Part shown: one piece after another, positions 1 to 51,200 of the stretch
Position numbering within the stretch: the stretch's first letter is position 1
How the letters are laid out: every line of letters starts with the position of its first letter
Origin: Phyllobates terribilis
Taxonomy: Eukaryota
DNA: 64,000 nt
Assembly (NCBI RefSeq): GCF_046119375.1
Contig: NW_027362772.1
Span: 314,650,001-314,714,000 of the forward strand
Reading direction: 5' to 3'
Translations under genes and position numbers: made by a program
The notes under the pieces: model-generated
Told to the model about the DNA's origin: nothing
The model's input: the letters and a program-made list of their open reading frames with translations, nothing else
Database searches by the model: none

Positions 1-702
1 GAGATACTAGCTCGGCTGAAGGACACCTTTGATACCCGTACCTCAGCCGAGATCAAGCTTCGATTCTACGGGTGCAAGCAGCGAGCACATGAGAATATAA
101 GGGACTATGCGCTAAACCTACAAGAGGCCCTGAGAGCCATTAAGCAGGCCGACCCTGACGGCGTGGGAAACGAAGACAAACTGTTGACTGAACAATTTAT
201 AGAGGGTCTACATTGTAATGCCCACCGAACCCAGTTGCGGGCCATGGCCTTACAGGACCCTCATCTGGACTTTGCACAGTTCAAGGACAGAGCCATCCGG
301 GTGCTCCGAGAACCGGCACCAGGTGGCGCTGTGACCCACAAACGCCCTGCTACCACTTACCACCAGGAGACGGCGCCCTTGTCGGCAGGGCCTGTGGGAG
401 CTGATGCGCAGGCTTTAAACAATGACCTGGCTACAGACCTGCACCATCAGGTCCAAGAGCTAACTAAAAGCGTTGCCGCGCTAACCCGAACTGTGCAGTC
501 CTTACAGGTTTCTACTCCAGGGAAGATCCAGCTGGCTTCCGGACCGGAGGATATCCCGTGGCGCCGACCAAGGAGGACCCCACCGGCCAGAGGAAGACCC
601 AGCGACCGATACAACGAGGACGGACAACCCATCTGCCGCCGCTGCAATCAACCCGGACATATGGCAAGGTACTGTCCTTTAAACTGGCACAACCTGGGGT
701 AG
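1..702 (+). CDS. gag: Gag C-terminal part (5'-partial)
   Basis: Frame 1 open from base 1 (EILARLKDTF...KQRAHENIRDYALNLQ...EQFIEGL) to TAG at 700-702; ends with CRRCNQPGHMARYC (CX2CX4HX4C). Confidence 0.92.
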   Translation, partial: EILARLKDTFDTRTSAEIKLRFYGCKQRAHENIRDYALNLQEALRAIKQADPDGVGNEDKLLTEQFIEGLHCNAHRTQLRAMALQDPHLDFAQFKDRAIRVLREPAPGGAVTHKRPATTYHQETAPLSAGPVGADAQALNNDLATDLHHQVQELTKSVAALTRTVQSLQVSTPGKIQLASGPEDIPWRRPRRTPPARGRPSDRYNEDGQPICRRCNQPGHMARYCPLNWHNLG

Positions 703-3700
703 AGGGCCAACCCCTAGGAATAAGATCACCAGGCCCATCGAACTGGCGTGACAAATACGTGGGAGGACGTCCAGTCTTGCCTGTGGTACTGGATGGCATT
801 CCTATGAGTGCCCTACTTGACACCGGGTCACAGGTCACCACCATCCCGTACTTGCTCTTCAAGCAGTACTGGAATGACTCGGATATAACCCGCTACCCAG
901 ACGACGACTTGAGTATCATCGCCAGCAATGGTCAGCCCGTGCCACAGATCGGATTTAAAGAGATGACCATTAAAATCGGTAAAGTCGAACTGGCAGCACA
1001 GGGACTGATCATTGTAGACATTGACAAGCGCGAGAGTCACCCAAAGATAACTCTAGGAACTAATGTGATTGAAAATTGTCTTGCGGAGGTGATTCTCATT
1101 TTACAGCAGGTTGCCAAGAATGCCAGCTCCGGCCAGCAGCGAGTGCTCCAAAAAGAGATCCGGGCACTGATGCGACGGCAACAAGTGGAACTCTCCGGTG
1201 GTGAGATAGGTAGCGTGAGAATGTGTGACCCGTTCCCTATTGCAATGCCCCCAAAAAATGAAATGATGATTTGGTGCCGGGCAGCTATTGGTCTCAGAGG
1301 TAGAGACTACCAAGCAATGGTAGAACCCGTCTACTCAGACAGTAGGCCCACCATTTTGACAGCACGGGGGGTGGTTGATGTACGCCATGGGAGGGTGCCC
1401 GTTCGCATAATAAATATCGGGAAGAGGGAAGTGTACCTGCCCCGGTATGCTACGCTAGCCAAATTGTATACCATCAACCAAAATTCTGTACAGTCCGTGG
1501 AACCCTTGCCTCCATCTCATCCAGAGGAAGGTAACGGCTCTAAGCAACAAATGGAGGACTGGTGTCAGCAACTACATTTGGGTACTGACTCCACTCCCTC
1601 ACACCAGAAACAGGGAGTCTATCGGGTGGTTCGAGAGTACGAGAGAGTGTTTAGTAAACACCCGCTAGACTTCGGGCGAGTAAAGGGGGTAGAACACCAC
1701 ATCCCCACGGGAAACCATCCTCCCATAAAGGAGAGATACCGACCCGTACCCCCTGCACACTACCAACACGCCAAGGGGATGCTTAGAGACATGAAGGAGG
1801 CTGGGGTAATCAGGGATAGCTGTAGCCCCTGGGCAGCTCCACTAGTCTTGGTTAAAAAGAAAGACTACACTATGAGAATGTGTGTAGATTACCGGAAAAT
1901 CAACCGTATCACACACAAAGATGCATACCCCTTACCAAGGATAGAGGAGTCTTTGGCTGCTTTAAAATCTGCTAACTTCTTCTCCACTTTGGATCTCACT
2001 AGCGGGTACTGGCAGGTTCCTGTAGCAGAGGCGGACCGGGAGAAGACCGCATTCACCACCCCGATGGGACTTAGCGAGTTTACCTGCATGCCGTTCGGAC
2101 TCTGCAACGCACCAGGAACCTTCCAACGATTGATGGAATGCTGTCTGGGACACCGGAACTTTGAGACGGTCCTGCTGTACCTGGACGATGTTATAGTTTA
2201 TTCCAAAACCTACGAGGACCACCTGAAACACCTGGCGGAGGTGTTTGAAGCCCTGGCAAACTATGGTCTGAAGGTGAAACCGTCGAAGTGTCACCTGCTA
2301 AAACCAAAAGTGCAGTACCTGGGACACGTGGTGAGTGCTGACGGAGTGGCCCCCGACCCTGATAAGATCACCGCGATTAAGGAATGGCCAAGACCCTCCA
2401 GCGTAAAGGAAGTGCGGCAGTTCCTCGGGTTGGTAGGCTACAACCGAAGATTCATTCCCGGTTTCACCAAAAAGGCAGCTCCTATGCAGGACCTCCTGAT
2501 AGGCCAGTCCAGGAAGGCCAAGAACCAGAAGCCGCCCTTCAGATGGGAGAAGCTGGAAGAAGAGTCCTTCCGCCAGCTGAAGATGGCCCTCACGGGGGAT
2601 GAAATCCTGGCGTACCCTGATTACAGCCAGCCCTTTATCCTCCACACCGACGCAAGTGACATCGGGCTGGGAGCCGTACTGTCCCAGATCCAGCAGGGGA
2701 GAGAACGGGTAATTGCTTACGCCAGCCGAAAACTGCGACCCACCGAAAGAAACCCTGAGAATAACAGCTCATTCAAGCTAGAGTTCCTGGCAGTGGTGTG
2801 GGCAGTCACCGAACGCTTTAAGCACTACCTAGCCTCTTCCCGGTTCACCGTGTACACGGATAACAACCCGTTGACACACCTGGACACTGCAAGACTCGGT
2901 GCCCTGGAGCAGAGATGGATGGCCCGCCTGTCCAACTATGAGTTCACGATCAAATACCGGGCAGGACGCTCCAATACCAACGCGGATGCCTTGTCCAGAA
3001 TGCCAAACCTACCGGACGTAGGGGAAGATCCAGGGGAACTGGAAGAAGTTGAACTCCCCGCGTTTCACCGTCATGGGACTACCCAGTATTCCCACCGTGT
3101 AAGGGGTAAGCAATCCGCTACGTTCAACCCCTTACCTCATTACAACTGGGCAGAAACGCAAGACAGTGACCCCGCCGTCCGACTGGTGAAGGAGATGCTG
3201 ACTCAGCCAGATGCCCGCCTTGACCCAGACGCTCCGGAGGAGACCAAGCAACTGTGGGCTGAGAAGAGTCGACTGTTCCTTTACAAGGGGAAGTTGTGCC
3301 GCAGAATGGTTAACTCCCGGACGCATGAACTGGTCTGGCAAGTAGTGGTGCCAAGAACAGACGCGGCAATGGTACTGGAGGCATACCACGACGGAGCTGG
3401 GCACTTCGGATGGAAGAAGCTGGAGTTCCTGCTGCGCGGGCGGTTCCACTGGGTAGGCATGAGAGGAACCATCGAGAGGTGGTGCAGAGACTGTGGCCCA
3501 TGCAACCTAAGAAGGAAGGACCGTGCCAGCCAGAAGGCTCCCCTGCAGTCCATCGTCACCAGGCAGCCGTTGGAACTGGTAGCCTTGGACCATGTAAAAC
3601 TGACCCCCAGCAGAAGTGGCTACGTCTATGCGTTAACCATCGTGGATCACTACTCCCGGTTCTTGGTTGTAGTCCCCGTCAAGGACTTAACGGCTCAAAC

Positions 3701-4814
3701 AGCAGCTAGAGCCTTCCAGCAGCACTTCTGCCGTCCACACGGATACCCAGAGCAGGTGCTGACGGACCAAGGACCTGCCTTTGAAGCGGAAGACTTCCAG
3801 GAGTTCTGCACTCTGTATGGCTGCCGGAAGATAAGAACAACACCCTATCATCCGCAAACCAATGGACTCTGCGAGAAGATGAACCAGGTGGTGATAGACC
3901 TTCTGGAAACATTGCCCCTGGAAGAACGCAGTCTGTGGCCTGAGAAACTGCCTGATCTGGTGGACCTATACAACCACATCCCTGTAGGTTCTACCAACTG
4001 TACCCCGGCTTACCTAATGAGAGCAAGACCTGGTAAGCTGCCTGTTGATCTGGATATGGGAGTCCTGACACCCGAGGACACTTCACCAGAAGCAGACTGG
4101 GACACAGAGAGGCAGCAGCAGTACCGGAAAGTACAGGAGAGTGTTGAGCGAAGTCTCTGTCAAGCAAGAGAAAGACAGGAGAAGACTTACAACCAGCATG
4201 CTCCCGCTGTTCCCCTGGTACCTGGAGAGCAGGTCTTGAAGAGGAAAAGACGGCTCCACAAGTTGGACGACCAGTGGGAGAAGGACCCGTACACCGTACT
4301 GCCATCAAGCCATGAAAACCCAAAAATCTGCACAATCAGTAAGGATGGAGGAGAAACCACAGCCATTGTCTCCCGAGATCACCTGAAGAAGTGTCCCGAG
4401 CAACTACGAAACCCTGAAGAAGATCAAGAAAACACTCGACCCGCAGAGGAAAGGGAAGAGATGGTCAGTACTGTACTCGGAGACTTCCCTCGGTCTTGGA
4501 CACAAGTAAATGGCGCTGTTGTGGTACCCGTCCTCACCTTCCTCCAGCCAGCATCCCAAGTGCCTACGGAAAAACAGGTAGAGCTGGAAGAGCAACCGGT
4601 CCAGGAGGCAGAAGACCCCACACAAGCAGACCAGGAGAATCGACCCTCTGCTTATAGTGAGCCTGCCGTGCCCCTAGTGAGCCAAAGAGTCCGTAGACAG
4701 CTGCCCAGCTTACCTTTGACAGCTCCTACACCCTGTAGCTCAGGACCGGTCAGTAAGCTCCGTAGGTCTACTAGGGCCACTAGAGGCCAGTTGCCCGTAC
4801 GTTGGAGGATCTAA
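558..4814 (+). CDS. pol: Pol polyprotein (protease, RT, RNase H, integrase), probably entered by -1 frameshift near 678-684
   Basis: LLDTGSQ protease; LDLTSGYWQ, MPFGLCNAPGTFQR and YLDD in RT; TDASDIG RNase H; HDGAGHFG...CRDCGPC Zn site; ALDH/TDQG/E integrase core; no internal stops. Confidence 0.96.
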   Translation: MAPTKEDPTGQRKTQRPIQRGRTTHLPPLQSTRTYGKVLSFKLAQPGVEGQPLGIRSPGPSNWRDKYVGGRPVLPVVLDGIPMSALLDTGSQVTTIPYLLFKQYWNDSDITRYPDDDLSIIASNGQPVPQIGFKEMTIKIGKVELAAQGLIIVDIDKRESHPKITLGTNVIENCLAEVILILQQVAKNASSGQQRVLQKEIRALMRRQQVELSGGEIGSVRMCDPFPIAMPPKNEMMIWCRAAIGLRGRDYQAMVEPVYSDSRPTILTARGVVDVRHGRVPVRIINIGKREVYLPRYATLAKLYTINQNSVQSVEPLPPSHPEEGNGSKQQMEDWCQQLHLGTDSTPSHQKQGVYRVVREYERVFSKHPLDFGRVKGVEHHIPTGNHPPIKERYRPVPPAHYQHAKGMLRDMKEAGVIRDSCSPWAAPLVLVKKKDYTMRMCVDYRKINRITHKDAYPLPRIEESLAALKSANFFSTLDLTSGYWQVPVAEADREKTAFTTPMGLSEFTCMPFGLCNAPGTFQRLMECCLGHRNFETVLLYLDDVIVYSKTYEDHLKHLAEVFEALANYGLKVKPSKCHLLKPKVQYLGHVVSADGVAPDPDKITAIKEWPRPSSVKEVRQFLGLVGYNRRFIPGFTKKAAPMQDLLIGQSRKAKNQKPPFRWEKLEEESFRQLKMALTGDEILAYPDYSQPFILHTDASDIGLGAVLSQIQQGRERVIAYASRKLRPTERNPENNSSFKLEFLAVVWAVTERFKHYLASSRFTVYTDNNPLTHLDTARLGALEQRWMARLSNYEFTIKYRAGRSNTNADALSRMPNLPDVGEDPGELEEVELPAFHRHGTTQYSHRVRGKQSATFNPLPHYNWAETQDSDPAVRLVKEMLTQPDARLDPDAPEETKQLWAEKSRLFLYKGKLCRRMVNSRTHELVWQVVVPRTDAAMVLEAYHDGAGHFGWKKLEFLLRGRFHWVGMRGTIERWCRDCGPCNLRRKDRASQKAPLQSIVTRQPLELVALDHVKLTPSRSGYVYALTIVDHYSRFLVVVPVKDLTAQTAARAFQQHFCRPHGYPEQVLTDQGPAFEAEDFQEFCTLYGCRKIRTTPYHPQTNGLCEKMNQVVIDLLETLPLEERSLWPEKLPDLVDLYNHIPVGSTNCTPAYLMRARPGKLPVDLDMGVLTPEDTSPEADWDTERQQQYRKVQESVERSLCQARERQEKTYNQHAPAVPLVPGEQVLKRKRRLHKLDDQWEKDPYTVLPSSHENPKICTISKDGGETTAIVSRDHLKKCPEQLRNPEEDQENTRPAEEREEMVSTVLGDFPRSWTQVNGAVVVPVLTFLQPASQVPTEKQVELEEQPVQEAEDPTQADQENRPSAYSEPAVPLVSQRVRRQLPSLPLTAPTPCSSGPVSKLRRSTRATRGQLPVRWRI
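678..736 (+). promoter_or_regulatory. -1 programmed ribosomal frameshift signal (slippery heptamer plus predicted pseudoknot)
   Basis: T TTA AAC at 678-684 in gag phase; stem CCTGGGGT(693-700)/ACCCCTAGG(710-718); loop GGGCC(704-708) complementary to GGCCC(732-736); pol is -1 to gag. Confidence 0.8.
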
Positions 4815-5181
4815 AGTGTTCAGACTGTTTTATTGGTATTTACCTGTTTACTGTTGCTTGTAAATAATTATGTTTTTTCTAGTTATTTTATAGGTGTCTT
4901 TTGTGGATTAACCGGAACTCTGTTGTATATATGTTTGGAGCGTAACCCAGGAACGGACTAAAGACTGTTAAAGACTCGGGGCAGAACAGACCCCTACCTG
5001 GTTACGGCTCCCTGTTCTTTGGTGAAATGGACACCCTTTTTGCTTCAAAAATTGCACCCGGTTGCGGACACGCCGTGACCACCCTAATGTGTTTTTCCTT
5101 ATTGTATTGCTCCTGTTTATACCCTGTTATGTTTTCAAAAATATGTTTAGTCCCGGAGTACTAAATTTTACTAGGGGGGAA

Positions 5182-6218
5182 TGTGGAACCCCAGGGGTCT
5201 GGTTACCACAGTAATAGCAATATTACGTCTGTGAGCAGGTGGGAGGTCTCCTGGTCAGGAATCCTAAGCATGCAACATCTCCTGCCCAGTCCTGGGAGGG
5301 GAAGAACTTCCCCTATATAAACTGGGGCTGAGGCGGGGTTAGGGAGAAGAAGAGGAGTCCCAGACAGAGACACAGTCTGGTCTGGAGTGGAGCTGATACA
5401 GGGAGAGCAAGATCAGGAGCTCTGTGGGAGCAGTGATAAAAGGGGTCAGAGACTGGAAGCTGTAGAGCTCGTCCTGACTGAAGAGATCTCACCGGACACG
5501 GAGTCCGAGGCTGTGGGGACTGAGCCATACCCAGCAGCAGAAACCGACCGGCAGGGGATTTCAGGTCCTCTGGCCAAGAAACCCGAAGGCACGGTCACAC
5601 GCAAGGGACCAGCACCGCTGTCGTGGAGCGGAGGCTACCAGAAGGCCCTGAGTCACCGGCCATACGGGTGAGCACCACACGGTACACTCAGGGACGTGGG
5701 CTACTTTTACCCGCTTCTAGCAAGGTAGCCAGGAAGAGTACAATTAGTGGGGAGGCCTACAACTCCACCTGGCCAGGGGAGATCCTATCTGCTCACGGAC
5801 TGACCAGGCCCCGATCGCTAGCCAGTACTCCCGGGAGGGTCTACCTTTGCCACCAGTAAAGACCCTGAACTACACCGCACCGTCTCTGAGTGGTTCCTGG
5901 TGCCTGCGAGCAATTCTACTATCCCCATCATCCATGTCCGCTGCCCTGAGGCCATACCCCTCCCGTTGGGGGTTATACTATCCACGCTGCACAACCGTAC
6001 CACCGGCCTCAGCGGTCTGCCCTGCAGCGGCGGTTTCATAACCGCATTCAACGGGTGGCGTAGTCGAACACTATAACATCTTATACTAAACTCCGCCGCT
6101 TAGTTTGACACCCTGGGCACGGACCGGGTCACCGCCACGAGGACTACTATCCCCAGCAGATCCGGCTCCGGGTATCCCCCTGCGCAGCAGAAGCAGCACA
6201 GGCCCAGGGGGTGCGTCA
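5182..6218 (+). repeat. 3' LTR of autonomous Gypsy (1037 bp)
   Basis: Starts TGT directly after PPT; TATATAAA 5314-5321; AGTAAA 5855-5860 (possible polyA signal variant); ends GGGGGTGCGTCA like the other LTRs, then satellite begins. Confidence 0.9.
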
Positions 6219-8794
6219 CAGGCACGTGGAGGCCACACACAATACTCAGCCTCATCAGGAGCATGCCCAGGCGTTGTAGGGAGGTCATACAGGCACGTGG
6301 AGGCCACACACAATACTCAGCCTCATCAGGAGCATGCCCAGGCGTTGTAGGGAGGTCATACAGGCACGTGGAGGCCACACACAATACTCAGCCTCATCAG
6401 GAGCATGCCCAGGCATTGTAGGGAGGTCATACAGGCACATGGAGGCCACACACAATACTGAGCCTCATCAGGAGCATGCCCAGGCGTTGTAGGGAGGTCA
6501 TACAGGCACATGGAGGCCACACACAATACTCAGCCTCATCAGGAGCATGTCCAGGCGTTGTAGGGAGATCATACAGGCAGGTGGAGGCCACACACAATAC
6601 TCATCCTCATCAGGAGCATGCCCAGGCGTTGTAGGGAGGTCATACAGGCACGTGGAGGCCACACACAAGACTCAGCCTCATCAGGAGCATGCCCAGGCGT
6701 TGTAGGGAGGCCATACAGGCACGTGGAGGCCACACACAATACTCAGCCTCATCAGGAGCATGCCCAGGCGTTGTAGGGAGGCCATACAGGCACGTGGAGG
6801 CCACACACAATACTCAGCCTCATCAGGAGCATGCCCAGGCGTTGTAGGGAGGTCATACAGGCACATGGAGGCCACACACAGTACTCTGCCTCATCAGGAG
6901 CATGCCCAGGCATTGAAGGGAGGTCATACAGGCACGTGGAGGCCACACACAATACTCAGCCTCATCAGGAGCATGCCCAGGCGTTGTAGGGAGGTCATAC
7001 AGGCACGGGGAGGCCACACACAATACTCAGCCTCATCAGGAGCATGCCCAGGCGTTGTAGGGAGATCATACAGGCAGGTGGAGGCCACACACAATACTCA
7101 GCCTCATCAGGAGCATGCCCAGGAGTTGTAGGGAGGTCATACAGGCACGTGGAGGCCACACAATACTGAGCCTCATCAGGAGCATGCCCAGGCGTTGTAG
7201 GGAGGTCATACAGGCACGTGGAGGCCACACACAATACTCAGCCTCATCAGGAGCATGCCCAGGCATTGTAGGGAGGTCATACAGGCACGTGGAGGCCACA
7301 CACAATACTGAGCCTCATCAGGAGCATGCCTAGGCGTTGTAGGGAGGTCATACAGGCACGTGGAGGCCACACACAATACTCAGCCTCATCAGGAGCATGC
7401 CCAGGCGTTGTAAGGAGGTCATACAGGCACGTGGAAGCCACACACAATACTCAGCCTCATCAGGAGCATGCCCAGGCGTTGTAGGGAGGTCATACCGGCA
7501 CATGGAGGCCACACACAATACTCAGCCTCATCAGGAGTATGCCCAGGCGTTGTAGGGAGGTCATACAGGCACGTGGAGGCCACACACAATACTCAGCCTC
7601 ATCAGGAGCATGCCCAGGCGTAGTAGGGAGGTCATACAGGCACGTGGAGGCCACACACAATACGCAGCCTCATCAGGAGCATGCCCAGGCGTTGTAGGGA
7701 GGTCATACAGGCACGTGGAGGCCACACACAATATTCAGCCTCATCAGGAGCATGCCCAGGCGTTGTAGGGAGGTCATACAGGCACGTGGAGGCCACACAC
7801 AATGCTCAGCCTCTTCAGGAGCATGCCCAGGCGTTGTAGGGAGGTCATACAGGCACGTGGAGGCCACACACAATGCTCAGCCTCTTCAGGAGCATGCCCA
7901 GGTGTTGTAGGGAGGTCATACAGGCACGTGGAGGCCACACACAATACTCAGCCTCATCAGGAGCATGCCCAGGCATTGTAGGGAGGTCATACAGACACGT
8001 GGAGGCCACACACAATACTCAGCCTCATCAGGAGCATGCCCAGGCGTTGTAGGGAGGTCATACAGGCACGTGGAGGCCACATACAATACTCAGCCTCATC
8101 AGGAGCATGCCCAGGCACTGTAGGGAGGTCATACAGGCACGTGGAGGCCACACACAATACTCAGCCTCATCAGGAGCATGCCCAGGCGTTGTAGGGAGGT
8201 CATACAGCCACGTGGAGGCCACACACACAATACTCAGCCTCATCAGGAGCATGCCCAGGTGTTGTAGGGAGGTCATACAGGCACGTGGAGGCCACACACA
8301 ATACTCAGCCTCATCAGGAGCATGCCCAGGCGTTGTAGGGAGGTCATACAGGCATGTGGAGGCCACACACAATACTCAGCCTCATCAGGAGCATGCCCAG
8401 GCATTGTAGGGAAGTCATACAGGCACGTGGAGGCCACACACAATACTCAGCCTCATCAGGAGCATGCCCAGGCATTGTAGGGAAGTCATACAGGCACGTG
8501 GAGGCCACACACAATACTCAGCCTCATCAGGAGCATGCCCAGGCGTTGTAGGGAGGTCATACAGGCACGTGGAGGCCACACACAATACTCAGCCTCATCA
8601 GGAGCATGCCCAGGCGTTGTAGGGAGGTCATACAGGCACGTGGAACCACACACAATACTCAGCCTCATCAGGAGCATGCCCAGGCGTTGTAGGGAGGTCA
8701 TACAGGCACATGGAGGCCACACACAATACTCAGCCTCATCAGAAGCATGCCCAGGCATTGTAGGGAGGTCATACAGGCACGTGGAGGCCACGCA
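6219..8794 (+). repeat. 71-bp satellite derived from a Tc1 transposase 3' end (~36 units)
   Basis: Unit CAGCCTCATCAGGAGCATGCCCAGGCGTTGTAGGGAGGTCATACAGGCACGTGGAGGCCACACACAATACT; encodes LIRSMPRRCREVIQARGGHTQY, identical to the end of the transposase at ~62970-63040. Confidence 0.95.
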
Positions 8795-10039
8795 TGTAGC
8801 ACCCTGAGGACTCGGCTGCTACAGGGGTATTGCACCTCAAACCAGAAGTGTGGTATTCCACTCCCGGGTAAGGATGGAGTGTGGGACTGAGCTCAGTAGG
8901 CTGCATGCACTACATACATCCCATTTCCGGGGGACAGAACTACGGTACTCCCACCAGTTAAATGTGCAGGTACGACAGCGTCTGTCCCTGGCTGGAGTGG
9001 GAGGGGGGGTGGAACATCCCAGTAGTGTAGGGGCAGATAGGGGGAGTACTCTGGGTAAAGCTAGGAGCCCATTGGGTGCTGGTCACCTGGGCTCACACAT
9101 AGAGGGAGTATATAAGGTGGGCATCATCTAGAGATAGGGTCTTTTTAGTCAAGTTCAGCCTGAGGAGAAGCAGAGCAGAGGAGCTCAGCCAGGAGGGCTG
9201 ACAGGGAGCTGTGGCTCCGGCTGGGCCCAGCTCCAGGGCCAAGCATGAAGAAAGAGGAGGAAGAAGGACCCAGGGAGGCAGAGCCAGAGGGAACCCTAAG
9301 ATCCCAGAATCAGACCAAAAAGGGTGAAGGGTTGGCAGAAAAGCGCACCGGATCCCAAGCTGGCGGAGGCAAAAGTAACCCTTAGCCAGGAACCGGAGGT
9401 CGTGGGCAAGCTTTGCCACGACCCTCACCACATCCACCAGGAAGGTACACCAAGAGTAGGGTCAGGAAAGCCAGAGAAGGTTTTGCCATCAGAAGGCCCA
9501 AGGGAACCGGACAAAGGTGGATCCCTGGTGGGGACGGCCAGCAGAAAGAGAGAGAGAGGGGAGCTCAGGACCACGCTCCGGAACTGCCTGGGGGTTAGCC
9601 GAGCCCCGCACCTGGTGGACGCAGCACGGCTCGGGTGGTCACTCAAGGCCAGAGTGACTAAAGCAACATCAGTGAGTAAAAACCCTGAAACTGCATCCCA
9701 CGTCTCTGTGCCTCCTTACCGCACCATCACAACCTCCATCATCTACTCCTGCTGCCCTGAGGCCATACCCCTCCCGTTGGGGGTTATACCATCCCTGCTG
9801 CACCCATACCACCGGCCTCAGCGGACTGTTTTGCAGCGGCGGCCTTGTGACCGCAAATCAACGGGTGGCGTAGTCGACACACATTCTAACATCTACTGCT
9901 AATAGACTCGCCGCTTAGTTTGACTCCCTGGGCACGGACCGGGTCACCGCCACGAGACTACTACCCCCATCTGATCCGGCTCCGGGTAAGCCCCCGTGCG
10001 CGCGATGCCGCACGACACAGAAGGCCCAGGGGCGCGTCA
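8795..10039 (+). repeat. 5' LTR of element A
   Basis: TGT...TCA; ATTGG 9071-9075; TATATAA 9109-9115; AGTAAA 9675-9680; direct repeat of 12403-13647. Confidence 0.95.
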
Positions 10040-10043
10040 ACTT

Positions 10044-10061
10044 TGGCGTAGTCGGCAGGAT
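10044..10061 (+). promoter_or_regulatory. Primer-binding site for tRNA-Ser (element A)
   Basis: TGGCGTAGTCGGCAGGAT, 4 nt after the LTR; reverse complement of the 3' 18 nt of vertebrate tRNA-Ser (..AUCCUGCCGACUACGCCA), from recalled tRNA sequence. Confidence 0.9.
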
Positions 10062-10295
10062 CTCGTGCCCGCAACCACCGGGTACTGCGTGCCTGAAGAA
10101 AAGTTTATCTGTACCGTAAAAAGAAGTCTCCCGCCAATTCCGGAGGGTCCCCGCCATCGGACGTCGTCCGGAGTCGTTTCCCGCCGGTTGCCCGCCATCT
10201 GCAGTCTTTTCCCGCCATCCACAGAGTTTCCCGCCATTGGGAAGCGGTTCCCGCCATCTGAGACGATTTCCCGCCCTGGCAGAGCGGACGCCATT

Positions 10296-11968
10296 ATGGG
10301 CGTGCCAGAGGGTGGCAAGAGGCCACCTCCCATCGTGGGCCAGGACCAAGAATGGCGCCAAAAACGAAGACCGCCCCCACCAGCAGAGACTGCAGTGATT
10401 GAGATGTCCGTCAGCGTGGGGGGTCTGCCCCTGGAACTGACAATCACCAAGTTGCCCCAGGACCGCCCTCAAAGTAGGCGGATCAAGAACAAAAGAGAGA
10501 GGATGGGTGCAGCCTGGAGGAGTCTGGAGAAGCCGTACCCGGAGATGGAGGGAGAGTCAGGCAGCACCGACCCTGTGGTCAGGAGCCTGTTGCAAGCTAC
10601 AACCCCACAAGACCTGGTGGAGATCCTGGCACAGCTCCCCCGAGACCGGGAGCGTGCACAGACCGCGCTGGAGGGCCTCGCACGGAGGATGGCCCAGGTG
10701 CAGCAAGAAACGCTGACTGCGTGGAGCAGGGAGATGGCCCAGCAGGCTGGAACCCGCCCGCGGAGCACGCCACCCAAGACGAGGAGTCTGACCGCCTCTG
10801 AGGATGGTGCGGGAGGAATGAAGGCCGGAGACGACGCCGTGGAAGGAGCTGAAGAGACGGAGGCAGGTAAAGGGGACGTCACTACCCCAAGCCTAGAAAC
10901 CGCGAGCCTGCCCCAGCTCCCCGTCGCAGAGCCCGAAATTTCCCCTACCGTGCCCGTCGCTGCACCGCCACCGCTCCAGACTAGGCCTCCAGCAGGAGCC
11001 GCGACCACGCCCCCTGTGACGTCACGCGCCTCGACCCCGAGCGCGGCCAAGCAGGAGACGCCACCGGCCTGGTCGCAGGGCCGAGTACCCCCGGGCGCCG
11101 CAGTTCCAACAGCGCCCTCTACCTCCACTAAGTCACTGGCCTGGTCGCAAGGTCAAGTACCCCCGGGCGCCGCCGTCTCAACAGTGCCCTTTTCCTTCAG
11201 GGTGCCCCCAGCCTGGTCGCAAGGCCTGGTGAACCCGGGCGCCGCTGCCACCACCGCGCCCTCAACCCACAAAGTCCTACCCCTGGGTGAAGATTGTTCG
11301 CCCAACATACTTGCCCGGATGGGCAGCCCTTTGAGTGGCCACCGGAGTACTACCATCCCCGACTCCGGAAGGAAAGGCCCCTGGATGAGCCCCTGATTCC
11401 GGCTCCGGCGCCTGTCAAGATCGTCCCGCTCCCGCTGGAGGAGGCCCAATTTGAATGGGACCCCACCGGGGAAAACCTCATCGGCTTCACCCAAGAGACC
11501 CGGGCGGCCGCAGCCCAGCGAGCAGAGTGCTGCCGGCAACAGCTGGAGGTCTTCGACCGGGAGCGGCGAGAGAGGCGGGTCCGCGAGGAGCGGCTGCAAG
11601 TGCAGAGTGCAGAACAGAAGAGCCGGACCCGACGGAACCCCCGTGCAGCCCACGGTCCCCGTGCCACCGGGACTGTAATCAAATTCCAAGTGCAGCACGG
11701 ATGGGGCTTCATCCGGGATCACCGCACCCCCGGCGACGTCTTCGTGACCCGCAGAGATGTCGAGTCCCACCTGCCGGAGGGACATCGCGGACGTGACCTT
11801 TACCTGGGTGACGAGGTCACTTTCACCCGGCACCAGTGTGCCAAAGGACCGTACGCCCTTCATGTACACCGACTGACGGAGGAAGAGCTGCGGTATGAGG
11901 AGGAACAAGAGAACCCGGACGGGTTTGAAGGTCACCCGCGAGAAGGAGCAGGAGGATGCCGTTACTGA
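10296..11968 (+). pseudogene. Cold-shock-domain ORF of element A, split by a 1-nt deletion near 11295
   Basis: ORFs 9996-11396 and 11294-11968 join to match the intact element C protein; CSD GTVIKFQVQHGWGFI...DVFVT...GDEVTF...GPYALHV at 11669-11866. Confidence 0.88.
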
Positions 11969-12402
11969 AGTACGGTAAAGTGGAACTGTATATATTTACC
12001 CGTAAGGGTACAAGAACTGTTACAAGTACTGCTGCTAAGTAAAGTATAGTCCCCGTTGGGACCAGCAAACTGTTACCCGTGTGTCCCTATCCCTTAACAG
12101 GCTGAGGACTGTGAGCAGCCATCCCTTATCCCCACTGGCCGAGGACTGAGAGCGGCCATACCCCTTGTAAATAGTTGCGCTTCCTAAAGCGCCCCCTACT
12201 GGTTTTATAGAAGAACAAGAACATTTTATAAGAAGAGTTTTATATCAAAAAGTCTTATAATATAAGAAGTTACCCGTAATGTTATGTTGCTGATAATGTT
12301 TATAATGTTTTATATATTCGTGTATGTTTTGAAAAATTTTGTATGTTTGCATGTTTTGCTCTTTTACAGCCCGAGGACGTGCTGTGATTTACCAGGGGGG
12401 AA

Positions 12403-13647
12403 TGTAGCACCCCGAGGACTCTGCTGCTACAGGGGTATTGCACCTCAAACCAGAGGTGTGGTATTCCACTCCCGGGTAAGGATGGAGTGTGGGACTGAGC
12501 TCAGTAGGCTGCATGCACTACATACATCCCATTTCCGGGGGACAGAACTACGGTACTCCCACAAGTTAAATGTGCAGGTACGACAGCGTCTGTCCCTGGC
12601 TGGAGTGGGAGGGGGGGTGGAACATCCCAGTAGTGTAGGGGCAGATAGGGGGAGTACTCTGGGTAAAGCTAGGAGCCCATTGGGTGCTGGTCACCTGGGC
12701 TCACACATAGAGGGAGTATATAAGGTGGGCATCATCTAGAGATAGGGTCTTTTTAGTCAAGTTCAGCCTGAGGAGAAGCAGAGCAGAAGAGCTCAGCCAG
12801 GAGGGCTGACAGGGAGCTGTGGCTCCGGCTGGGCCCAGCTCCAGGGCCAAGCATGAAGAAAGAGGAGGAAGAAGGACCCAGGGAGGCAGAGCCAGAGGGA
12901 ACCCTAAGATCCCAGAATCAGACCAAAAAGGGTGAAGGGTTGGCAGAAAAGGGCACCGGATCCCAAGCTGGCGGAGGCAAAAGTAACCCTTAGCCAGGAA
13001 CCAGAGGTCGTGGGCAAGCTTTGCCACGACCCTCACCACATCCACCAGGAAGGTACACCAAGAGTAGGGTCAGGAAAGCCAGAGAAGGTTTTGCCATCAG
13101 AAGGCCCAAGGGAACCGGACAAAGGTGGATCCCTGGTGGGGACGGCCAGCAGAAAGAGAGAGAGAGGGGAGCTCAGGACCACGCTCCGGAACTGCCTGGG
13201 GGTTAGCCGAGCCCCGCACCTGGTGGACGCAGCACGGCTCGGGTGGTCACTCAAGGCCAGAGTGACTAAAGCAACATCAGTGAGTAAAAACCCTGAAACT
13301 GCATCCCACGTCTCTGTGCCTCCTTACCGCACCATCACAACCTCCATCATCTACTCCTGCTGCCCTGAGGCCATACCCCTCCCGTTGGGGGTTATACCAT
13401 CCCTGCTGCACCCATACCACCGGCCTCAGTGGACTGTTTTGCAGCGGCGGCCTTGTGACCGCAAATCAACGGGTGGCGTAGTCGACACACATTCTAACAT
13501 CTACTGCTAATAGACTCGCCGCTTAGTTTGACTCCCTGGGCACGGACCGGGTCACCGCCACGAGACTACTACCCCCATCTGATCCGGCTCCGGGTAAGCC
13601 CCCGTGCGCGCGATGCCGCACGACACAGAAGGCCCAGGGGCGCGTCA
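12403..13647 (+). repeat. 3' LTR of element A
   Basis: Follows PPT AGGGGGGAA; near-identical to 8795-10039. Confidence 0.95.
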
Positions 13648-14376
13648 CACACAATACTCAGCCTCTTCAGGAGCATGCCCAGGCGTTGTAGGGAGGTCAT
13701 ACAGGCACGTGGAGGCCACACACAATACTCAGCCTCATCAGGAGCATGCCCAGGCGTTGTAGGGAGGTCATACAGGCACGTGGAGGCCACACACAATACT
13801 CAGCCTCATCAGTAGCATGCCCAGGTGTTGTAGGGTGTCATACAGGCACGTGGAGGCCACACACAATACTCAGCCTCATCAGGAGCATGCCCAGGCGTTG
13901 TAGGGAGGTCATACAGGCACGTGGAGGCCACACACAATACTCAGCCTCATCGGGAGCATGCCCAGGCGTTGTAGGGAGGTCATACAGGCGCGTGGAGGCC
14001 ACACACAATACTCAGCCTCATCAGGAGCATGCCCAGGCGTTGTAGGGAGGTCGTACAGGCACGAGGAGGCCACACACAATACTCAGCCTCATCAGGAGCA
14101 TGCCCAGGTGTTGTAGGGAGGTCATACAGGCACGTGGAGGCCACACACCATACTCAGCCTCATCAGGAGCATGCCCAGGCGTTGTAGGGAGGTCATACAG
14201 GCACGTGGAGGCCACACACCATACTCAGCCTCATCAGGAGCATGCCCAGGCGTTGTAGGGAGGTCATACAGGCACGTGGAGGCCACACACAATACTCAGC
14301 CTCATCAGGAGCATGCCCAGGCGTTGTAGGGAGGTCATACAGGCACGTGGAGGCCACACACAATACTCAGCCTCAT
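13648..14376 (+). repeat. Continuation of the 71-bp Tc1-derived satellite (~10 units)
   Basis: Same unit; resumes in register after element A. Confidence 0.95.
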
Positions 14377-43044: not shown

Positions 43045-43122
43045 TCAGATGCAGCTTGCAATGAGCAGTGTGAGGTCCCAGCAGCTGGAGGGACACTGAG
43101 GAGAACTAAGGAGTGATGCTAA

Positions 43123-46100
43123 TGTAGCACCCTGAGGACTCGGCTGCTACAGGGGTATTACACCTCAAGCCAGAGGTGTGGTATTCCACTCCCGGGTAAG
43201 GATGGAGTGTGGGACTGAGCTCAGATAGCTGCATACACTACATACATCCCATTTCCGGGGGACAGACCGACGGTACTCCCACCAGTATATGTGCAGGTAC
43301 GACAGTGTCTGTCCCTGGCTGGAGTGGGAGGGGGGTGGAACATCCCAGTAGTGTAGGGGCAGATAGGGGGAGCAGTCTGGGTAAGGCTAGGAGCTCATTG
43401 GGTGCTGGTCACCTGAGCTCACACATAGAGGGAGTATATAAGGTGGGCACCATCTTAGATCAGGGTCAGTCTTCTGTAGAGGGTCAGTCAGTCCTGAGAG
43501 AGGTCCAGGAGCGCCTGTAGAGAGAAGAGAGAGAGGAGAAGAGAAGGACCCAGAGGGGGAGAAGAAGGAACCCCAAGAACCCAGTATACAACCAGAAGGG
43601 TGAAGGGTTGGCACGCAAGGGAACCGGATCCCAAATTAGTGGAGGAGAGAAACTACCCTCAACTAAGAACCGGAGGCTGCGACATTACATGTGGAGCAGC
43701 CCCTCACCAAGTCCACTAAGAAGGCACACTGAGCATAGGGTCAGGGAAGCCAAAGAAGGTTCACCCAACAGGAGACCCGAGGGAGCCGGACATAAGTGGA
43801 CCCCTGGTGGGAACGGCCAGTAGAGAAGACAGTCAGAAAGGGAGCTCAGGACCACGCTCCAGAATTGCTTGGGGGTTGGCCGAGTCCAGGACCTGGTGGA
43901 CGCAGCACGGCTCGGGCGGTCACTCAAGGCCAGAGTGACCAACAGAACAGCAGTAAGTAAAAACCCTGAACTGCACAGCCCGACTCTGAGTCTTCTTACC
44001 ATCCACACTGCACCACCACTACCACCATCCTCTACACCTGACCCCCTGAGGCTATACCCCTCCCGTTGGGGGTTATACTACCACAGCTGCACATATACCA
44101 CCAGCCTCAGCGGACCCTGCTGCAGCGGCGGCCTTTTGACCTCAAATCAACGGGTGGCGTAGTCGACACTAAGAACAACTAATAACATCTGTAAAGACTG
44201 CCACACACTGAGTTTGACACCCTGGGCACGGACCGGGTCGCCGCCACTCGGAGACTACAACCCCCATCAGATCCGGCTCCGGGTAATCCCCGAACAGCAC
44301 TGGCCCAGGGGGCGCGTCAACTTTGGCGTAGTCGGCAGGATTTCGTGCCCGCAACCACCGGGTACTGTTTGCCTGAAGAAAAGTTCAAATTTACCTCAAG
44401 AAGAAGTCTCCCGCCGGTTCCAGAGGGTCCCCGCCATGGGACGCCATCACGGATCGTTTCCCGCCGGTTGCCCGCCATCTGCAGCTTTTTCCCGCCATTT
44501 CCAGAAGATTTCCCGCCTTGGAAGAGCGGACGCCATTATGGGCGTGCCAGAGGGTGGCAAGAGGTCACCTCCCATCGTGGGCCAGGTAAAGGAATGGCGC
44601 CAAAAGCGGAAACCGCCCCCACCAACGGAGACTGTGATGCTAGAGATGTCCATCAGCGTGAGAGAACTGCCCCTGGAACTGACAATCACAAAGTTGCCCC
44701 GGGACCACCTTCAATGTGGGCGGAGACAGAACAAGAGAGCGAAGATGGGTGCAGCCTGGAGAAGTCTGGAGAGAGCGCACCCGGAGACAAGAAGTCTGGA
44801 GAGGACTCCGGAGAAGTCGTACCCGGAGATGGAAGGAGAGTCAGGCAGCACCGACCCTGTGGTCAGGAGCCTGCTGCAAGCAACAACCCCACTAGGCTTA
44901 GTGGAGATCCTGGCACAGCTCCCCCGAGACCGGGAGTGTGCGCAGACCGCGCTGGAGCGCCTCGCATGGAGGATGGCCCAGGTGCAGCGAGAGATGCTGA
45001 CGAAGTGGAGCCGAGAGATGGCCCTGCAGGCAAGAACCCGCCAGCGAAGCACGCCACCCGAGACGAGGAGACAGACCGCCTCTGAGGATGGTGCAGGAGG
45101 AGTGAAGGCCGGAGACGGCGCCGAAGAGGGAGCTGAACAGATGGAGGCAGGTAAAGGGGACGTCACTACCCCGAGCCGAGAAACCGCGTGCCTGCCCCAG
45201 CTCCCCGTCGCAGAGCCCGAAAATCCCCCTGCCGTGCCCGTCGCTGCATCGTCACCGCTCCAGACAAGGCCTCAAGCAGAAGCCGCGGCCGCGACCCCTG
45301 TGACGTCACGCGCCTCAATCCTGAGCGCGGCAAAGCAGGAAACACCACCGGCCTGGTCGCAAGGTCTAGTACCCCCGGGCGCCGCAGTACCAACAGCGCC
45401 CTCTACCTCCACTGAGCCACCGGCCTGGTCGCTGGGCCAAGTAACCCCGGGCGCCGCCGTCTTCACGGTGCCCTTTACGTTCAGGGTACCCCAGGCCTGG
45501 TCGCAAGGCCTGGCGAACCCGGGCGCCGCCACCACCACCGCGCCCTCAACATCCACAGCGCCACACCTGGGTGAAGACCTATTTGCCCAGCATACGTGCC
45601 CGGATGGGCAGCCCTTTAGATGGCCACCGGAGTACTACCAACTGGAACTCCAAAAAGCAAGGCCCCTGGATGAGCCCCTGATCCCGGCTCCGGCGCCCGC
45701 CAAGATCACCCCACTCTCGCTGGAGGAAGGAGCTGGAGGACGTCGCCACTGATGTACAGTAGGAGCACTGTAAATAGTTACCCGTGAAGGTACAATAACT
45801 GTTACCATTATAGTCCCCGTTGGGACCAGTGAACTGTTCCAGTGTGTCCCATCTCCCCACAGGCTGAGGACTGTGAACAGCCATCCCTTTTCCCCACTGG
45901 TCGAGGACTGAGAGCGGCCATATTTCCCCTTGTATATAGTTGCGCTTTTTAAGGCGCCCCCTACTGGTTTTATAGGAAAGCTGTGTTATTCTACAAGAGA
46001 CTGTCGCACTTTACCCGGTCACAAGTTGCACCGTCGCCGGAGGAACAAGAAAGTTTACAAGAATGTTTATTATGAAAAAGTTTTATGCTGCAGAAATATA

Positions 46101-47403
46101 TATATAATGTTTTATATGTTTATGTTGTTATGAAAAAAAATTGTATGTTTATGGATGTTTTATTCTCTTACAGCCCGAGGACGTGCTGTGATTTACCAGG
46201 GGGGAATGTAGCACCCTGAGGACTCGGCTGCTACAGGGGTATTACACCTCAAGCCAGAGGTGTGGTATTCCACTCCCGGGTAAGGATGGAGTGTGGGACT
46301 GAGCTCAGATAGCTGCATACACTATATACATCCCATTTCCGGGGGACAGACCGACGGTACTCCCACCAGTATATGTGCAGGTACGACAGTGTCTGTCCCT
46401 GGCTGGAGTGGGAGGGGGGTGGAACATCCCAGTAGTGTAGGGGCAGATAGGGGGAGCAGTCTGGGTAAGGCTAGGAGCTCATTGGGTGCTGGTCACCTGA
46501 GCTCACACATAGAGGGAGTATATAAGGTGGGCACCATCTTAGATCAGGGTCAGTCTTCTGTAGAGGGTCAGTCAGTCCTGAGAGAGGTCCAGGAGCGCCT
46601 GTAGAGAGAAGAGAGAGAGGAGAAGAGAAGGACCCAGAGGGGGAGAAGAAGGAACCCCAAGAACCCAGTATACAACCAGAAGGGTGAAGGGTTGGCACGC
46701 AAGGGAACCGGATCCCAAATTAGTGGAGGAGAGAAACTACCCTCAACTAAGAACCGGAGGCTGCGACATTACATGTGGAGCAGCCCCTCACCAAGTCCAC
46801 TAAGAAGGCACACCGAGCATAGGGTCAGGGAAGCCAAAGAAGGTTCACCCAACAGGAGACCCGAGGGAGCCGGACATAAGTGGACCCCTGGTGGGAACGG
46901 CCAGTAGAGAGGACAGTCAGAAAGGGAGCTCAGGACCACGCTCCAGAATTGCTTGGGGGTTGGCCTAGTCCAGTACCTGGTGGACGCAGCACGACTCGGG
47001 CGGTCACTCAAGGCCAGAGTGACCAACAGAACAGCAGTAAGTAAAAACCCTGAACTGCACAGCCCGACTCTGAGTCTTCTTACCATCCACACTGCACCAC
47101 CACTACCACCATCCTCTACACCTGACCCCCTGAGGCTATACCCCTCCCGTTGGGGGTTATACTACCACAGCTGCACATATACCACCAGCCTCAGCGGACC
47201 CTGCTGCAGCGGCGGCCTTTTGACCGCAAATCAACGGGTGGCGTAGTCGACACTAAGAACAACTAATAACATCTGTAAAGACTGCCACACACTGAGTTTG
47301 ACACCCTGGGCACGGACCGGGTCGCCGCCACTCGGAGACTACAACCCCCATCAGATCCGGCTCCGGGTAATCCCCGAACAGCACTGGCCCAGGGGGCGCG
47401 TCA
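43123..47403 (+). mobile_element. Non-autonomous LTR element B (CSD-deleted derivative)
   Basis: 1197-bp LTRs 43123-44319 and 46207-47403 (~7 differences by eye); perfect TSD CTAA; tRNA-Ser PBS 44324-44341; PPT before 46207. Confidence 0.95.
44538..45752 (+). CDS. Element B ORF: homolog of the element C protein lacking the C-terminal coiled coil and CSD
   Basis: MGVPEGGKR...PLDEPLIPAP...LEE|GAGGRRH*; in-frame fusion to the same terminal codons as element A; start codon assumed. Confidence 0.7.
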   Translation: MGVPEGGKRSPPIVGQVKEWRQKRKPPPPTETVMLEMSISVRELPLELTITKLPRDHLQCGRRQNKRAKMGAAWRSLERAHPETRSLERTPEKSYPEMEGESGSTDPVVRSLLQATTPLGLVEILAQLPRDRECAQTALERLAWRMAQVQREMLTKWSREMALQARTRQRSTPPETRRQTASEDGAGGVKAGDGAEEGAEQMEAGKGDVTTPSRETACLPQLPVAEPENPPAVPVAASSPLQTRPQAEAAAATPVTSRASILSAAKQETPPAWSQGLVPPGAAVPTAPSTSTEPPAWSLGQVTPGAAVFTVPFTFRVPQAWSQGLANPGAATTTAPSTSTAPHLGEDLFAQHTCPDGQPFRWPPEYYQLELQKARPLDEPLIPAPAPAKITPLSLEEGAGGRRH

Positions 47404-48204: not shown

Positions 48205-51200
48205 TGACGCGCCCCCTGGGACATATTCCTTTTTGAGGGGAATACCCGGCACCGGATCAGATGGGGGGTTGTAGTCTCCGAGCGGCTGTGACCCGGCCCC
48301 GTGCCCAGGGCGTCAAGCTCAGTGTTATGTGGCAGCTTTACAGATGTTACTAAAGTTCTTTTGTGTCGACTACGCCACCCGTTGTGATGCGGTCACTGTG
48401 GCCGCCGCTGCAGCAGGGTCCGCTGAGGCTGATGGTGGATGCGCAGCTTGGTGGGATAACCCCCAACGGGAGGGGTATAGCCTCAGAGGGGACAGGCGCA
48501 GAGGATGGGGGTTGTGGTGGTGCGGTGCAGCCGGCAATGAAGACAGACTCGGGTTGTGCAGTTAAGGGTGTTTACTTACTGCAGATGTTGTACTGGTCAC
48601 TCCAGCTGCTAGTGACCACCCGAGCCGTGCTGCGTCCACCAGGTCCTGGATCCAGCCAACCCCCAAACAAGTCCGGAGCGTGGCCCTGAGCTCTCCCTCT
48701 GTCCTTTCTTCAGCCGTCCCCACCAGTGATCCACCTAGGTCCAGCTCCCTCGGGCCTTCTGTTGGGACACCCTTGGCCCTGGGTTCCCTGACCCTTCATG
48801 TGGTGTGCCTTCGGGGTGAATATGGTGGGTGACCGTGGCAAACGCTGCCCACGATCTCCGGTCTCTGGCTAGGGATTGTTTTTGCCCCCACCAGCTTGGG
48901 TTCCGGTACCCTGATGCTGACTCCTCACCCGGTGCTCTAGTTTGGGTTCTTGGGTCCCTTCAGTCTTCCCCCTCTGGGTCTTTCTCTGCTCCACTCTCTC
49001 TCTCTCCAGGGCTGCTGTTTCCTTCTCTCTCCTCTCCAACTCACTTTCTGCGTCTGAACTTGTCCTCTGCAGCTGACTGACCCTGATCTAAGTTGGTGCC
49101 CTCCTTATATATCCCTCTATGTGTGAGCTCAGGTGACCAGCACCCAATGAGCTCCTATCACTACCCAGACTGCTCCCCCTATCTGCCCCTACACTACATG
49201 GGATGTACCACCCCCCTCCCACTCCAGCCAGGAACAGGCTCGGTTGTACCTGCACATTTCTAAGTGGGAGTACCGTCGGCCTGCTCCTCTGAAATGGGAT
49301 GTATGTAGTGCATGCAGTCTATCTGAGCTCAGTTCCACACTCCATCCTTACCCGGGAGTGGAATATCACACCTCTGGGTTGAGGTGCAATACCCCTGTAG
49401 CAGCCGAATCCTCAGGGTGCTACATTCCCCCCTGGTAAATCACAGCACGTCCTCGGGCTGTAAAGACATAAAACACCAAAACATACAATTTTTTTTTTCA
49501 TATAAACATATAAAACATATAAAACATTATATATATAAAACTTTTTTATATAAACATTCTCGTAGACTTCTCTTGTCTCTGGTTCCTCCTCCGGACACTG
49601 TGCAACGTGTGTCCGGGAAAAGTGCGACAGTCTCTTAGAAAAACTGGTTTTCTATAAAACCGGTAGGGGGCGCTTTAGGAAGCGCAACTATATACAGGGA
49701 GAAGTTGGAAGTTGGCCGCTCTCAGTCCTCGGCCAGGTAGAGGGAAGGGAATGGCTGCTCACAGTCCTCAGCCTGTAGGATAAAGGGGTTAACGGGTAAA
49801 CAGTTCACTGGTCCCAACGGGGACTATTTTAGCTCTAACGGTTCACTGTGCCCCGACGGGCAACTATATACAGTCTCTACTCCCGTCCTCAACGACGGCT
49901 CCCTCCTGCTTTTTCTTGATATGGTGTTGCTTCAGACCCGTCCGGGTCCTCTGGCTCCTCCTCTCCGTACCGCAACTCCTCCTCCGTCAAGCGGTGTACG
50001 TGGAGGGCGTAAGGTCCTTTGGCACACTTGTGCCGGGTGAAAGTGACTTCGTCTCCGACGTAGAGGTCACGGCCTTTGTGACCTTCCGGCAGGTGGGACT
50101 CGACGTCTCTGCGAGTCACAAAAACGTCACCGCGGTTGTTACGGTCCCGAATAAAGCCCCACCCATGCTGCGGGTTGAACTTTATCACTGTCCCGATGGT
50201 GCGGGGACAATGCGCTGCACGGGGGTTCCTCCTAGTCCGGCTCTTCTGCTCCGCGCTCCGGATTTGGGCCTGTTGTTCTCTGACCCGCCTCTCCTCCCGT
50301 TCTCTCTTAAACTCTGCTAGCTGCTGACGACAACACTCAGTACGCTCAGCGGCGACTGCCCGAGTTTCCTGAGTGAACCCCATTAGATCTTCTCCGGTGG
50401 GGTCCCACTCAAACTGTGCTTCCGCTAGCGGGGGCGAGATCCGTGCCACGGGCTTCGGAGCCGGAATCAGGGGTTCATCCAGGGGTCTTAGTCTCTGCTG
50501 CCGTTCCAGCTCATGGTATCCTTCGGGCCAGATGAAGGGCCGCCCGTCCGGCCATGTGAGCTGGCTGAAGAGGTCCTCCCCCAGGTGTGGCACCCTTGGT
50601 ATTGCGGGCGCGGGCGCGGTGGTGGTGGCGCCCGGGTTGCCCAGGCCTTGCGGCCAGGCCTGGGGCACCTGGAAGGTGAAGGGCACCGTTAGGACGGCGG
50701 CGCCCTGGGCTACCTGGCCTTGCGGCCAGGCCGGAGGCTCCGCGGAGGTAGGGGGCGCTGTTGGTGGTGCGGCGCCCGGGGGTACTAGGCCTTGCGACCA
50801 GGCTGGTGGTAATTCCTGCTTTGTCACGCTCCGGGTCGAGGCGCGTGACGTCACAGGGGTCGCTGCGGCGGCTTCCGGTCGGGGCCTAGTCCATGGCGGT
50901 GACATGGCGGCTACGGGCACAGCAGGGGGACTTTCGGGCTCTGCGACGGGGAGCTGGGGCAGGTGGGCGGTTTCTCGGCTTGGGGTATAGGCGTCCCCTT
51001 TACCTGCCTCCATGCGTTCGGCTCCCTCCTCGGCGCCGTCTCCGGCCTTGGGTCCTCCCGCGCCATCCTCAGAGGCGGTCTGCTTCCTCGTCTCGGGCGG
51101 CGTGCTCCGCTGACAGGTCTCGGTCTGCTGGGCCATCTCACGGCTCCACTGCGCCAACGTCTCTCGCTGCACCCGGGCCATCCTCCTTGCGAGGCCCTCC

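Follow-up and report, generated by a model that had tools for sequence, protein, structure and literature searches.

In HIV-1, leader sequence outside the primer-binding site (PBS), the primer activation signal, pairs with the primer tRNA, and switching the primer needs a joint change in this sequence and the PBS (PMC3185550, PMC11181671). These extended contacts rest on mutagenesis, with conflicting results (PMC3185550). The yeast elements Ty3 and Ty1 have a bipartite PBS, in which several RNA segments bind different parts of one primer tRNA and the PBS proper is short (PMC5371799). Ty1 additionally forms a 5'-terminal pseudoknot needed for reverse transcription, a single, long-range knot from R to gag that is described with no adjoining tRNA site (PMC4974528). 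T-boxes, which are bacterial, use a specifier loop and a discriminator, UGGN, whose four nucleotides pair with the NCCA end of a tRNA that stays folded (PMC7583486).

Here we describe the end of an LTR from Phyllobates terribilis, within a 64,000-nucleotide stretch of DNA (the window), that combines a double pseudoknot with a second, internal copy of the PBS (PBS2). This U5 module is like the HIV-1 contacts in that leader sequence outside the PBS would pair with the primer tRNA, but such contacts are made with the T-arm or the anticodon loop, whereas the module matches the tRNA 5' acceptor strand and D-arm; it further differs in its second PBS copy with an adjoining double pseudoknot and in that the primer switch is natural (PMC3185550, PMC11181671). 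As in Ty3 and Ty1, several segments are predicted to bind one primer tRNA; unlike them, the module adds, within U5, another site for the tRNA 3' end that a full 18-nt PBS already matches (PMC5371799). It shares with Ty1 a knot in an LTR-retrotransposon leader, here a local, five-helix double knot within U5 (PMC4974528). As with the T-box discriminator, a UGGN sequence next to a helix is predicted to pair with NCCA of the tRNA, whose end would then stack on that helix, but 11–14 nt are predicted to be paired and the acceptor stem would open (PMC7583486). The openly accessible literature that was searched yielded no description of an LTR in which a copy of the PBS adjoins a double pseudoknot.

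The module was recognised in the 3' LTR of an element, here called A, with the following features:

468–4814, + strand: open pol frame of element A, an autonomous element, with reverse transcriptase (RT), RNase H and integrase in Gypsy order (ORF translation and domain order)
5173–5181, + strand: polypurine tract directly 5' of the LTR (sequence)
5182–6218, + strand: 3' LTR of element A with TG...CA ends (comparison with the 5' LTR)
5314–5320, + strand: TATA-like box, a putative promoter (sequence)
5855–5860, + strand: AGTAAA, a putative poly(A) signal that would put the motif in U5 (53 of 57 diverged copies)

From its sequence, element A is a Ty3/Gypsy LTR retrotransposon: it has the RT–RNase H–integrase order, TG...CA LTRs, a tRNA PBS, a polypurine tract and a gag with a CCHC knuckle, the last observed in copy L224. 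Its pol protein has its nearest named relatives among Rana, Bufo and Ranitomeya proteins (65–69% identity), with fish at about 60%. The 5' LTR, which lies upstream of the window (L031), is 97.7% identical to the 3' LTR and is followed by an 18-nt PBS, TGGCGTAGTCGGCAGGAT, complementary to a genomic tRNA-Ser(AGA) gene. Elements A and B (below) sit inside a 71-bp tandem repeat, and further tandem arrays have 39-, 31- and 36-bp units, the 36-bp array being 17.5 kb long (window 6218–8791, 13646–14376 and 62973–64000, and upstream in L031).

The TATA-like box has counterparts in the other elements of the window (TATATAAG in B and C, ATATAAG in D). The double-pseudoknot motif occupies the last 270 nt of the 3' LTR, and AGTAAA or AATAAA lies upstream of it in 53 of the 57 diverged copies, a position that would make it part of U5. 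A sequence-only reading of this DNA had placed the structure downstream of AGTAAA, in the 5' leader just before the PBS. The U5 position is supported; the copy at 5182–6218, being a 3' LTR, has no PBS after it, and the PBS follows the 5' LTR instead.

The upstream part of the module, domain I, consists of five helices, two of which (PK1 and PK2) cross others:

5944–5953, + strand: P1 5' strand, pairing with 6005–6012 and, past a 1-nt bulge, 6014–6015 (93.7% paired; 5 of 10 pairs compensated)
5956–5973, + strand: P2 hairpin (5956–60/5969–73), with 7 of its 8 loop nucleotides in PK2 (95.8% paired; 3 of 5 pairs compensated)
5962–5968, + strand: PK2 5' strand, the hairpin loop, pairing with 6049–6055 (99.3% paired)
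5986–5991, + strand: PK1 5' strand, pairing with 6023–6028 and crossing P1 (90.3% paired)
6001–6004, + strand: CAYC, near-invariant and able to pair with GGUG 6054–6057 (170 of 172 cells pair, 17 as U-G)
6005–6015, + strand: P1 3' strand (43-copy alignment)
6023–6028, + strand: PK1 3' strand (43-copy alignment)
6030–6045, + strand: P3 hairpin, GCGG/CCGC, CTGG/CCAG, GCAG/CTGC or CCGG/CCGG depending on the family (5 of 6 pairs compensated)
6049–6055, + strand: PK2 3' strand, adjoining the internal PBS copy (43-copy alignment and unconstrained recount)

The pairings on which the sequence-only reading built its double pseudoknot are present as it described them, namely CTGAGGCC (5946–53) with GGCCTCAG (6005–12), CCCGTTG (5962–68) with CAACGGG (6049–55), GCTGCA (5986–91) with TGCAGC (6023–28), the GCGG..CCGC hairpin (6030–45) and a terminal pairing of CCCTGGGC (6111–18) with GCCCAGGG (6202–09), as is AGTAAA at 5855–60. 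The compensatory change to CTGAGGCT/AGCCTCAG was found in five of eight window copies, which within the window is a single change and so weak evidence. Much broader support came from 43 diverged copies, obtained by reducing 176 matches to 47 at 92% identity and removing four rows (a window-internal match, an inverted duplicate in L140, L147, L149). Across this set P1, P2, P3, PK1 and PK2 are 94.2% paired, which bears out the proposed topology, and 17 of 34 pairs have changed on both sides. Slid controls gave 34–54% pairing. The covariation score of the five helices was reached by 0 of 500 shuffles, which ignore relatedness, while a measure of further pair types was not above shuffles (249 of 500). 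PK1 has a well-paired 5-bp core, with a terminal pair that is often open and only two compensated pairs.

Part of the 43-copy set came from a search requiring a matched PK2. This helix was therefore recounted in 100 copies picked by a PBS-like anchor with no PK2 constraint, of which 93 were parsable. Position 6 is Watson-Crick in 90 of the 93 (57 U-A, 33 G-C) and position 3 in 83 (59 C-G, 24 U-A), with a further four U-G. On a PK2-masked tree of 57 rows, at least three changes fall at position 3 and one at position 6. Genome-wide, 4,907 copies with U-G at position 3 stand against 3,254 with C-A, at a CpG site whose decay yields both; by hand count one subfamily accounts for about 30 of the 100 U-G copies listed first, a clustering which suggests that the U-G pair was propagated.

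The terminal pairing belongs to a second domain:

6106–6218, + strand: domain II, a long irregular hairpin closed at the LTR end (minimum free energy folds)

Domain II often folds as a long hairpin, with helices 6111–18/6202–09, 6120–23/6167–70 and 6124–30/6159–65, and is 81% paired across diverged copies. Its covariation score is not above shuffles (135 of 500), in a part of the alignment that is poorly in register. The domain is thus conserved and foldable, and the covariation described in the sequence-only reading is supported in the five upstream helices, the score of the terminal domain being within the range of shuffles.

Compactness, a doubly knotted fold and unpaired bases that never vary (A5980, A6002, C6004 and C6017 in the 43 rows) might also be expected of a new self-cleaving ribozyme, loosely HDV-like, with CC in the hairpin loop, GG after P1 and C6017 as its invariant cytosine; other retroelements are described, in the literature available, as carrying ribozymes. 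The strand order, however, is unlike those of HDV, twister, pistol and hammerhead. HDV runs P1-P2-P3-L3-P3-P1-P1.1-P4-P2, whereas here a hairpin precedes the PK1 strand and has its loop in a covarying 7-bp helix. Cleavage in the 5' U5 would leave R and the PBS on different fragments, and the conservation of the poly(A) signal points to an R of the usual kind. The Rfam 15 covariance models gave no match in the window at the gathering threshold, and for the motif only weak miRNA and lncRNA matches (E 0.28–8.7); neither a hammerhead in the LTR, as in retrozymes, nor a T-box was matched in Rfam. Self-cleavage of the module is unlikely, and a putative ribozyme of this kind very improbable. As the sequence-only reading had offered among its options, the motif is an unrecognised structured RNA, as far as Rfam and the accessible part of the literature searched extend. 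In other organisms the motif pattern gave 16 metagenome matches and one viral match, all at chance level by profile scan (best E 0.05); an RT search of viral contigs gave no matches, and an alignment search returned four distant loci of 30–45% identity without the motif.

Two sites in the module, neither noted in the sequence-only reading, match the primer tRNA:

6056–6066, + strand: PBS2, the internal PBS copy TGGCGTAGTCG, 11 nt (complementary to the tRNA-Ser(AGA) 3' acceptor strand and CCA)
6134–6147, + strand: loop box GCCAC-(GAG)-GACTAC, complementary to tRNA-Ser(AGA) nt 1–11 (duplex test against tRNA windows)

PBS2 equals the first 11 nt of the PBS and lies directly 3' of the PK2 3' strand, its match being 11 nt long in 65 of 68 AGA copies. 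UGGC 6056–59 thus adjoins PK2 and is predicted to pair with the tRNA end as in a T-box, while the lack of an Rfam T-box match speaks against a Stem I specifier loop and a terminator/antiterminator; T6056, G6057 and C6059 are invariant in the 43 rows, although the patterns used to collect these copies had in part required the G and TGG. The box lies in the apical loop of domain II and reads GCCAC-(0 to 5 nt)-GACTAC across copies. Relative to shuffles, tRNA nt 1–12 are the best of all 12-nt windows against the loop for both tRNA groups, and the cognate tRNA scores better than the non-cognate one in 22 of 24 non-redundant copies of one group and 25 of 26 of the other; an earlier, noisy duplex test on a 75-nt region favoured the cognate in 38 of 67 and 46 of 50.

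These sites change with the primer. A second family group has the PBS TGGCGTCACGAACAGGAT, which matches a genomic tRNA-Ser(CGA) gene, so that both primer tRNA genes are present in the genome. Its internal copy is TGGCGTCACGA(AC) and its box mostly GCCACCGTGAC or a close variant. Genome-wide, PBS2 and PBS types were AGA/AGA in 45,052 copies, AGA/CGA in one and CGA/AGA in one; PBS2 of CGA type with either PBS was counted in 3,165, and all 30 of those fetched had a CGA PBS. PBS, PBS2 and box therefore switch together between tRNA-Ser(AGA) and tRNA-Ser(CGA), a non-PBS segment complementary to the cognate primer being tied to primer identity as expected of an extended primer contact. In the two mismatched copies (L201 and L219) the PBS alone is of the other tRNA-Ser type, and these are probably mispriming events. 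Since only the PBS differs, PBS2 seems to be passed on from copy to copy and not rewritten from the primer, so that selection would be needed to keep it matched to the PBS. On a 58-row domain-I tree without the tRNA sites the tRNA label changes at least twice, a single change occurring in 0% of bootstrap trees. The 50-row domain II tree also gives two changes, but its starred branches force only one, so recombination could lower the number of independent events. That this U5 holds a real structured RNA with tRNA-linked sites is strongly supported, and a role in handling the primer is likely.

The module is not confined to element A:

8795–13647, + strand: non-autonomous element B, with the U5 module in both LTRs (alignment)
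43122–47403, + strand: non-autonomous element C, U5 module as in A (alignment)
48205–53194, − strand: non-autonomous element D, U5 module as in A (alignment)
55840–57037, + strand: solo LTR E, U5 module as in A (alignment)

Together these hold seven further copies of the LTR end, alignable with A only over the last 365 nt; the module is thus kept in non-autonomous elements although the remainder of the LTR does not align to A. Two partly overlapping motif patterns match 66,273 and 74,955 copies genome-wide, against 34 and 16 control matches, which makes the module common to tens of thousands of LTRs. A search for a third tRNA type gave 7,996 matches, and the 30 loci fetched were point variants, mostly of a subfamily with fixed 3' flanks, plus one non-LTR match. 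This solo-LTR subfamily (L147, L148 and most of L152–L167) has thousands of copies, with the PK2 pair broken and PBS2 mismatched, and was probably amplified passively inside another repeat. At L140 (1300–1800) a PBS is followed by a second linker, domain II and PBS and then by an inverted copy, an arrangement that might have arisen when a strand transfer went wrong between the PBS and its internal copy.

In place of pol, elements D (49889–52162, − strand) and B (11291–11968, + strand) have an ORF that encodes an RNA-binding domain of the cold-shock (CSD) type, and element C is homologous to them at the DNA level. A captured RNA chaperone within an element having a structured leader is unusual. 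Elsewhere in the window, a broken element unrelated to the motif (58184–60769) has a SCAN domain and an integrase that precedes the RT, an order we take to be Gmr1-like, and 62147–62851 is a fragment of a Tc1/mariner-type transposase.

It is hardly credible that the module is a neutral relic of common ancestry or of an old antisense tRNA insertion. PBS2 and the box, some 90 nt apart, do correspond to the termini of a tRNA-Ser in antisense. However, all five helices are compensated while the linkers have freely diverged, the tRNA type has been co-switched repeatedly, and the seemingly passively amplified subfamily is the one with the broken PK2 pair and PBS2 mismatch. The covariation and the genome-wide agreement of PBS and PBS2 largely refute a relic.

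The partner of the box could in principle lie in cis, as its 3' half can pair with PBS2 (6 bp, −11.6 kcal/mol). The box halves follow the order of the tRNA and are often contiguous; with a spacer of 0–1 nt, this order is wrong for joint pairing with PBS2. Family variants of the box (GGCCACGACTGC, CTGCCGTGAC and GCCACCGTGAT) keep the tRNA pairing through G-U wobbles, and in one lineage CCACTCGG/CCGCTCGG, including a wobble variant, matches tRNA nt 11–18, a pairing that PBS2 cannot provide. For these three reasons the tRNA is favoured as the partner over PBS2 in cis. Against tRNA pairing, one large CGA lineage (CCGCGAC) has an A-C mismatch to tRNA A4.

That lineage bears on a further alternative, in which the minus strand, as strong-stop DNA or antisense RNA, would do the work, with box and PBS2 mimicking a tRNA-Ser acceptor stem ending in CCA. 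In the reverse complement, GTAGTC is followed by GACTACGCCA at a distance of roughly one tRNA, and both the CCGCGAC mismatch and a C-A pair in P3 of families B–E turn into G-T wobbles on that strand. Total wobble counts do not settle the strand: G-U against A-C stands at 35 to 44 in domain I and 45 to 38 in domain II, which does not favour the plus strand. Support for the plus strand comes from P2, with nine U-G cells at one pair, and from CAYC, the box variants and PK2 position 3. Wobbles confined to the plus strand occur in P2, in CAYC and in three or more other lineages of the box, the GCCAC and CCACTCGG matches need the actual tRNA as partner, and what lies between the two ends does not resemble a tRNA. 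A working minus strand is improbable.

The reading we prefer, with a probability of roughly 0.55, is that the U5 module captures and opens the tRNA-Ser primer before reverse transcription. The free GCCA end of the tRNA would pair with UGGC 6056–59 and invade seven more pairs, opening the acceptor stem only, and the displaced 5' strand would be caught by the domain II loop box. PK2 would hold the seven template bases just ahead of the docked 3'-OH and stack on the docked end, so that reverse transcriptase would not extend from PBS2, the wrong site; as priming there would cut off the LTR end, a block makes sense. The 3' end would then move to the stronger 18-nt PBS after the LTR, with the 5' strand remaining on the box, comparable to the extended contacts of HIV-1 and Ty1. 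Predicted energies are −8.5 kcal/mol for the acceptor stem, −20.7 for PBS2, −16.2 for the box and −36.4 for the true PBS. This order, and the fact that docking would need the opening of the acceptor stem only, suggest a capture-and-opening device that hands the 3' end to the PBS. Helices, complementarities and co-switching are observed, and the binding, the order of events and the blocking are proposed on top of them. Against it, the CCHC knuckle of Gag supplies a protein to chaperone annealing, which makes an opener of RNA less necessary. The argument that Gag lacks NC, so that the RNA must act as chaperone, was rejected because of this same knuckle. Among the functions named in the sequence-only reading, priming gains direct support from the two tRNA-complementary sites; packaging and dimerisation are possible functions of the module.

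Dimerisation or packaging could work through one tRNA bridging two genomic RNAs, bound by its 3' end to the first and by its 5' end to the box of the second, or through an intermolecular PK2. For Ty3, tRNA-mediated dimerisation has been proposed (PMC5371799). Retention of the module by non-autonomous elements is expected of a cis signal read in trans. The P2 loop, however, is not self-complementary, no conserved palindromic loop was seen in the module, and a 1-nt loop with a 7-bp stem suits an intramolecular knot, this being the geometry of an intramolecular H-type pseudoknot. We consider this reading distinctly unlikely.

PBS2 might instead hold a second, non-priming tRNA whose presence or charging the pseudoknots report, a sensing switch that we regard as tentative and on the unlikely side. 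Its output, also to be doubted to that degree, would be a choice among translation, packaging and read-through of the weak AGTAAA signal. A docked A76 would stack on PK2 as tRNA A76 does on helix A1 of the T-box (PMC7583486). The near-invariant CAYC could form an alternative helix with the invariant GGUG that would cover the CCA-docking bases, and the linker at 6067–6105 and its homologues contain GACT-GCCAC, able to fold back on PBS2, in 12 of 24 AGA copies (z < −2). This anti-PBS2 linker is present in 0 of 26 copies of the CGA families, however, and neither an output element nor a specifier-like match to the anticodon was noticed in the module. A T-box-like eukaryotic tRNA sensor is an unlikely variant: the knot would form a pocket round the tRNA-Ser 3' end, admit uncharged tRNA only (or help to remove the serine), switch between PK2 and CAYC/GGUG, and so license packaging and priming.

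The ways in which retroelements choose, open and position their primer tRNA have long been disputed. The families described here amount to a natural primer-switch experiment: over tens of thousands of copies, three separate sites change in step with the tRNA isoacceptor. The compact, strongly covarying double pseudoknot fits a transcript of about 300 nt, suited to probing and to structure solution with the tRNA. The RNA motif, absent from Rfam, belongs to an LTR group that ranks among the most abundant in the 10.6-Gb genome.
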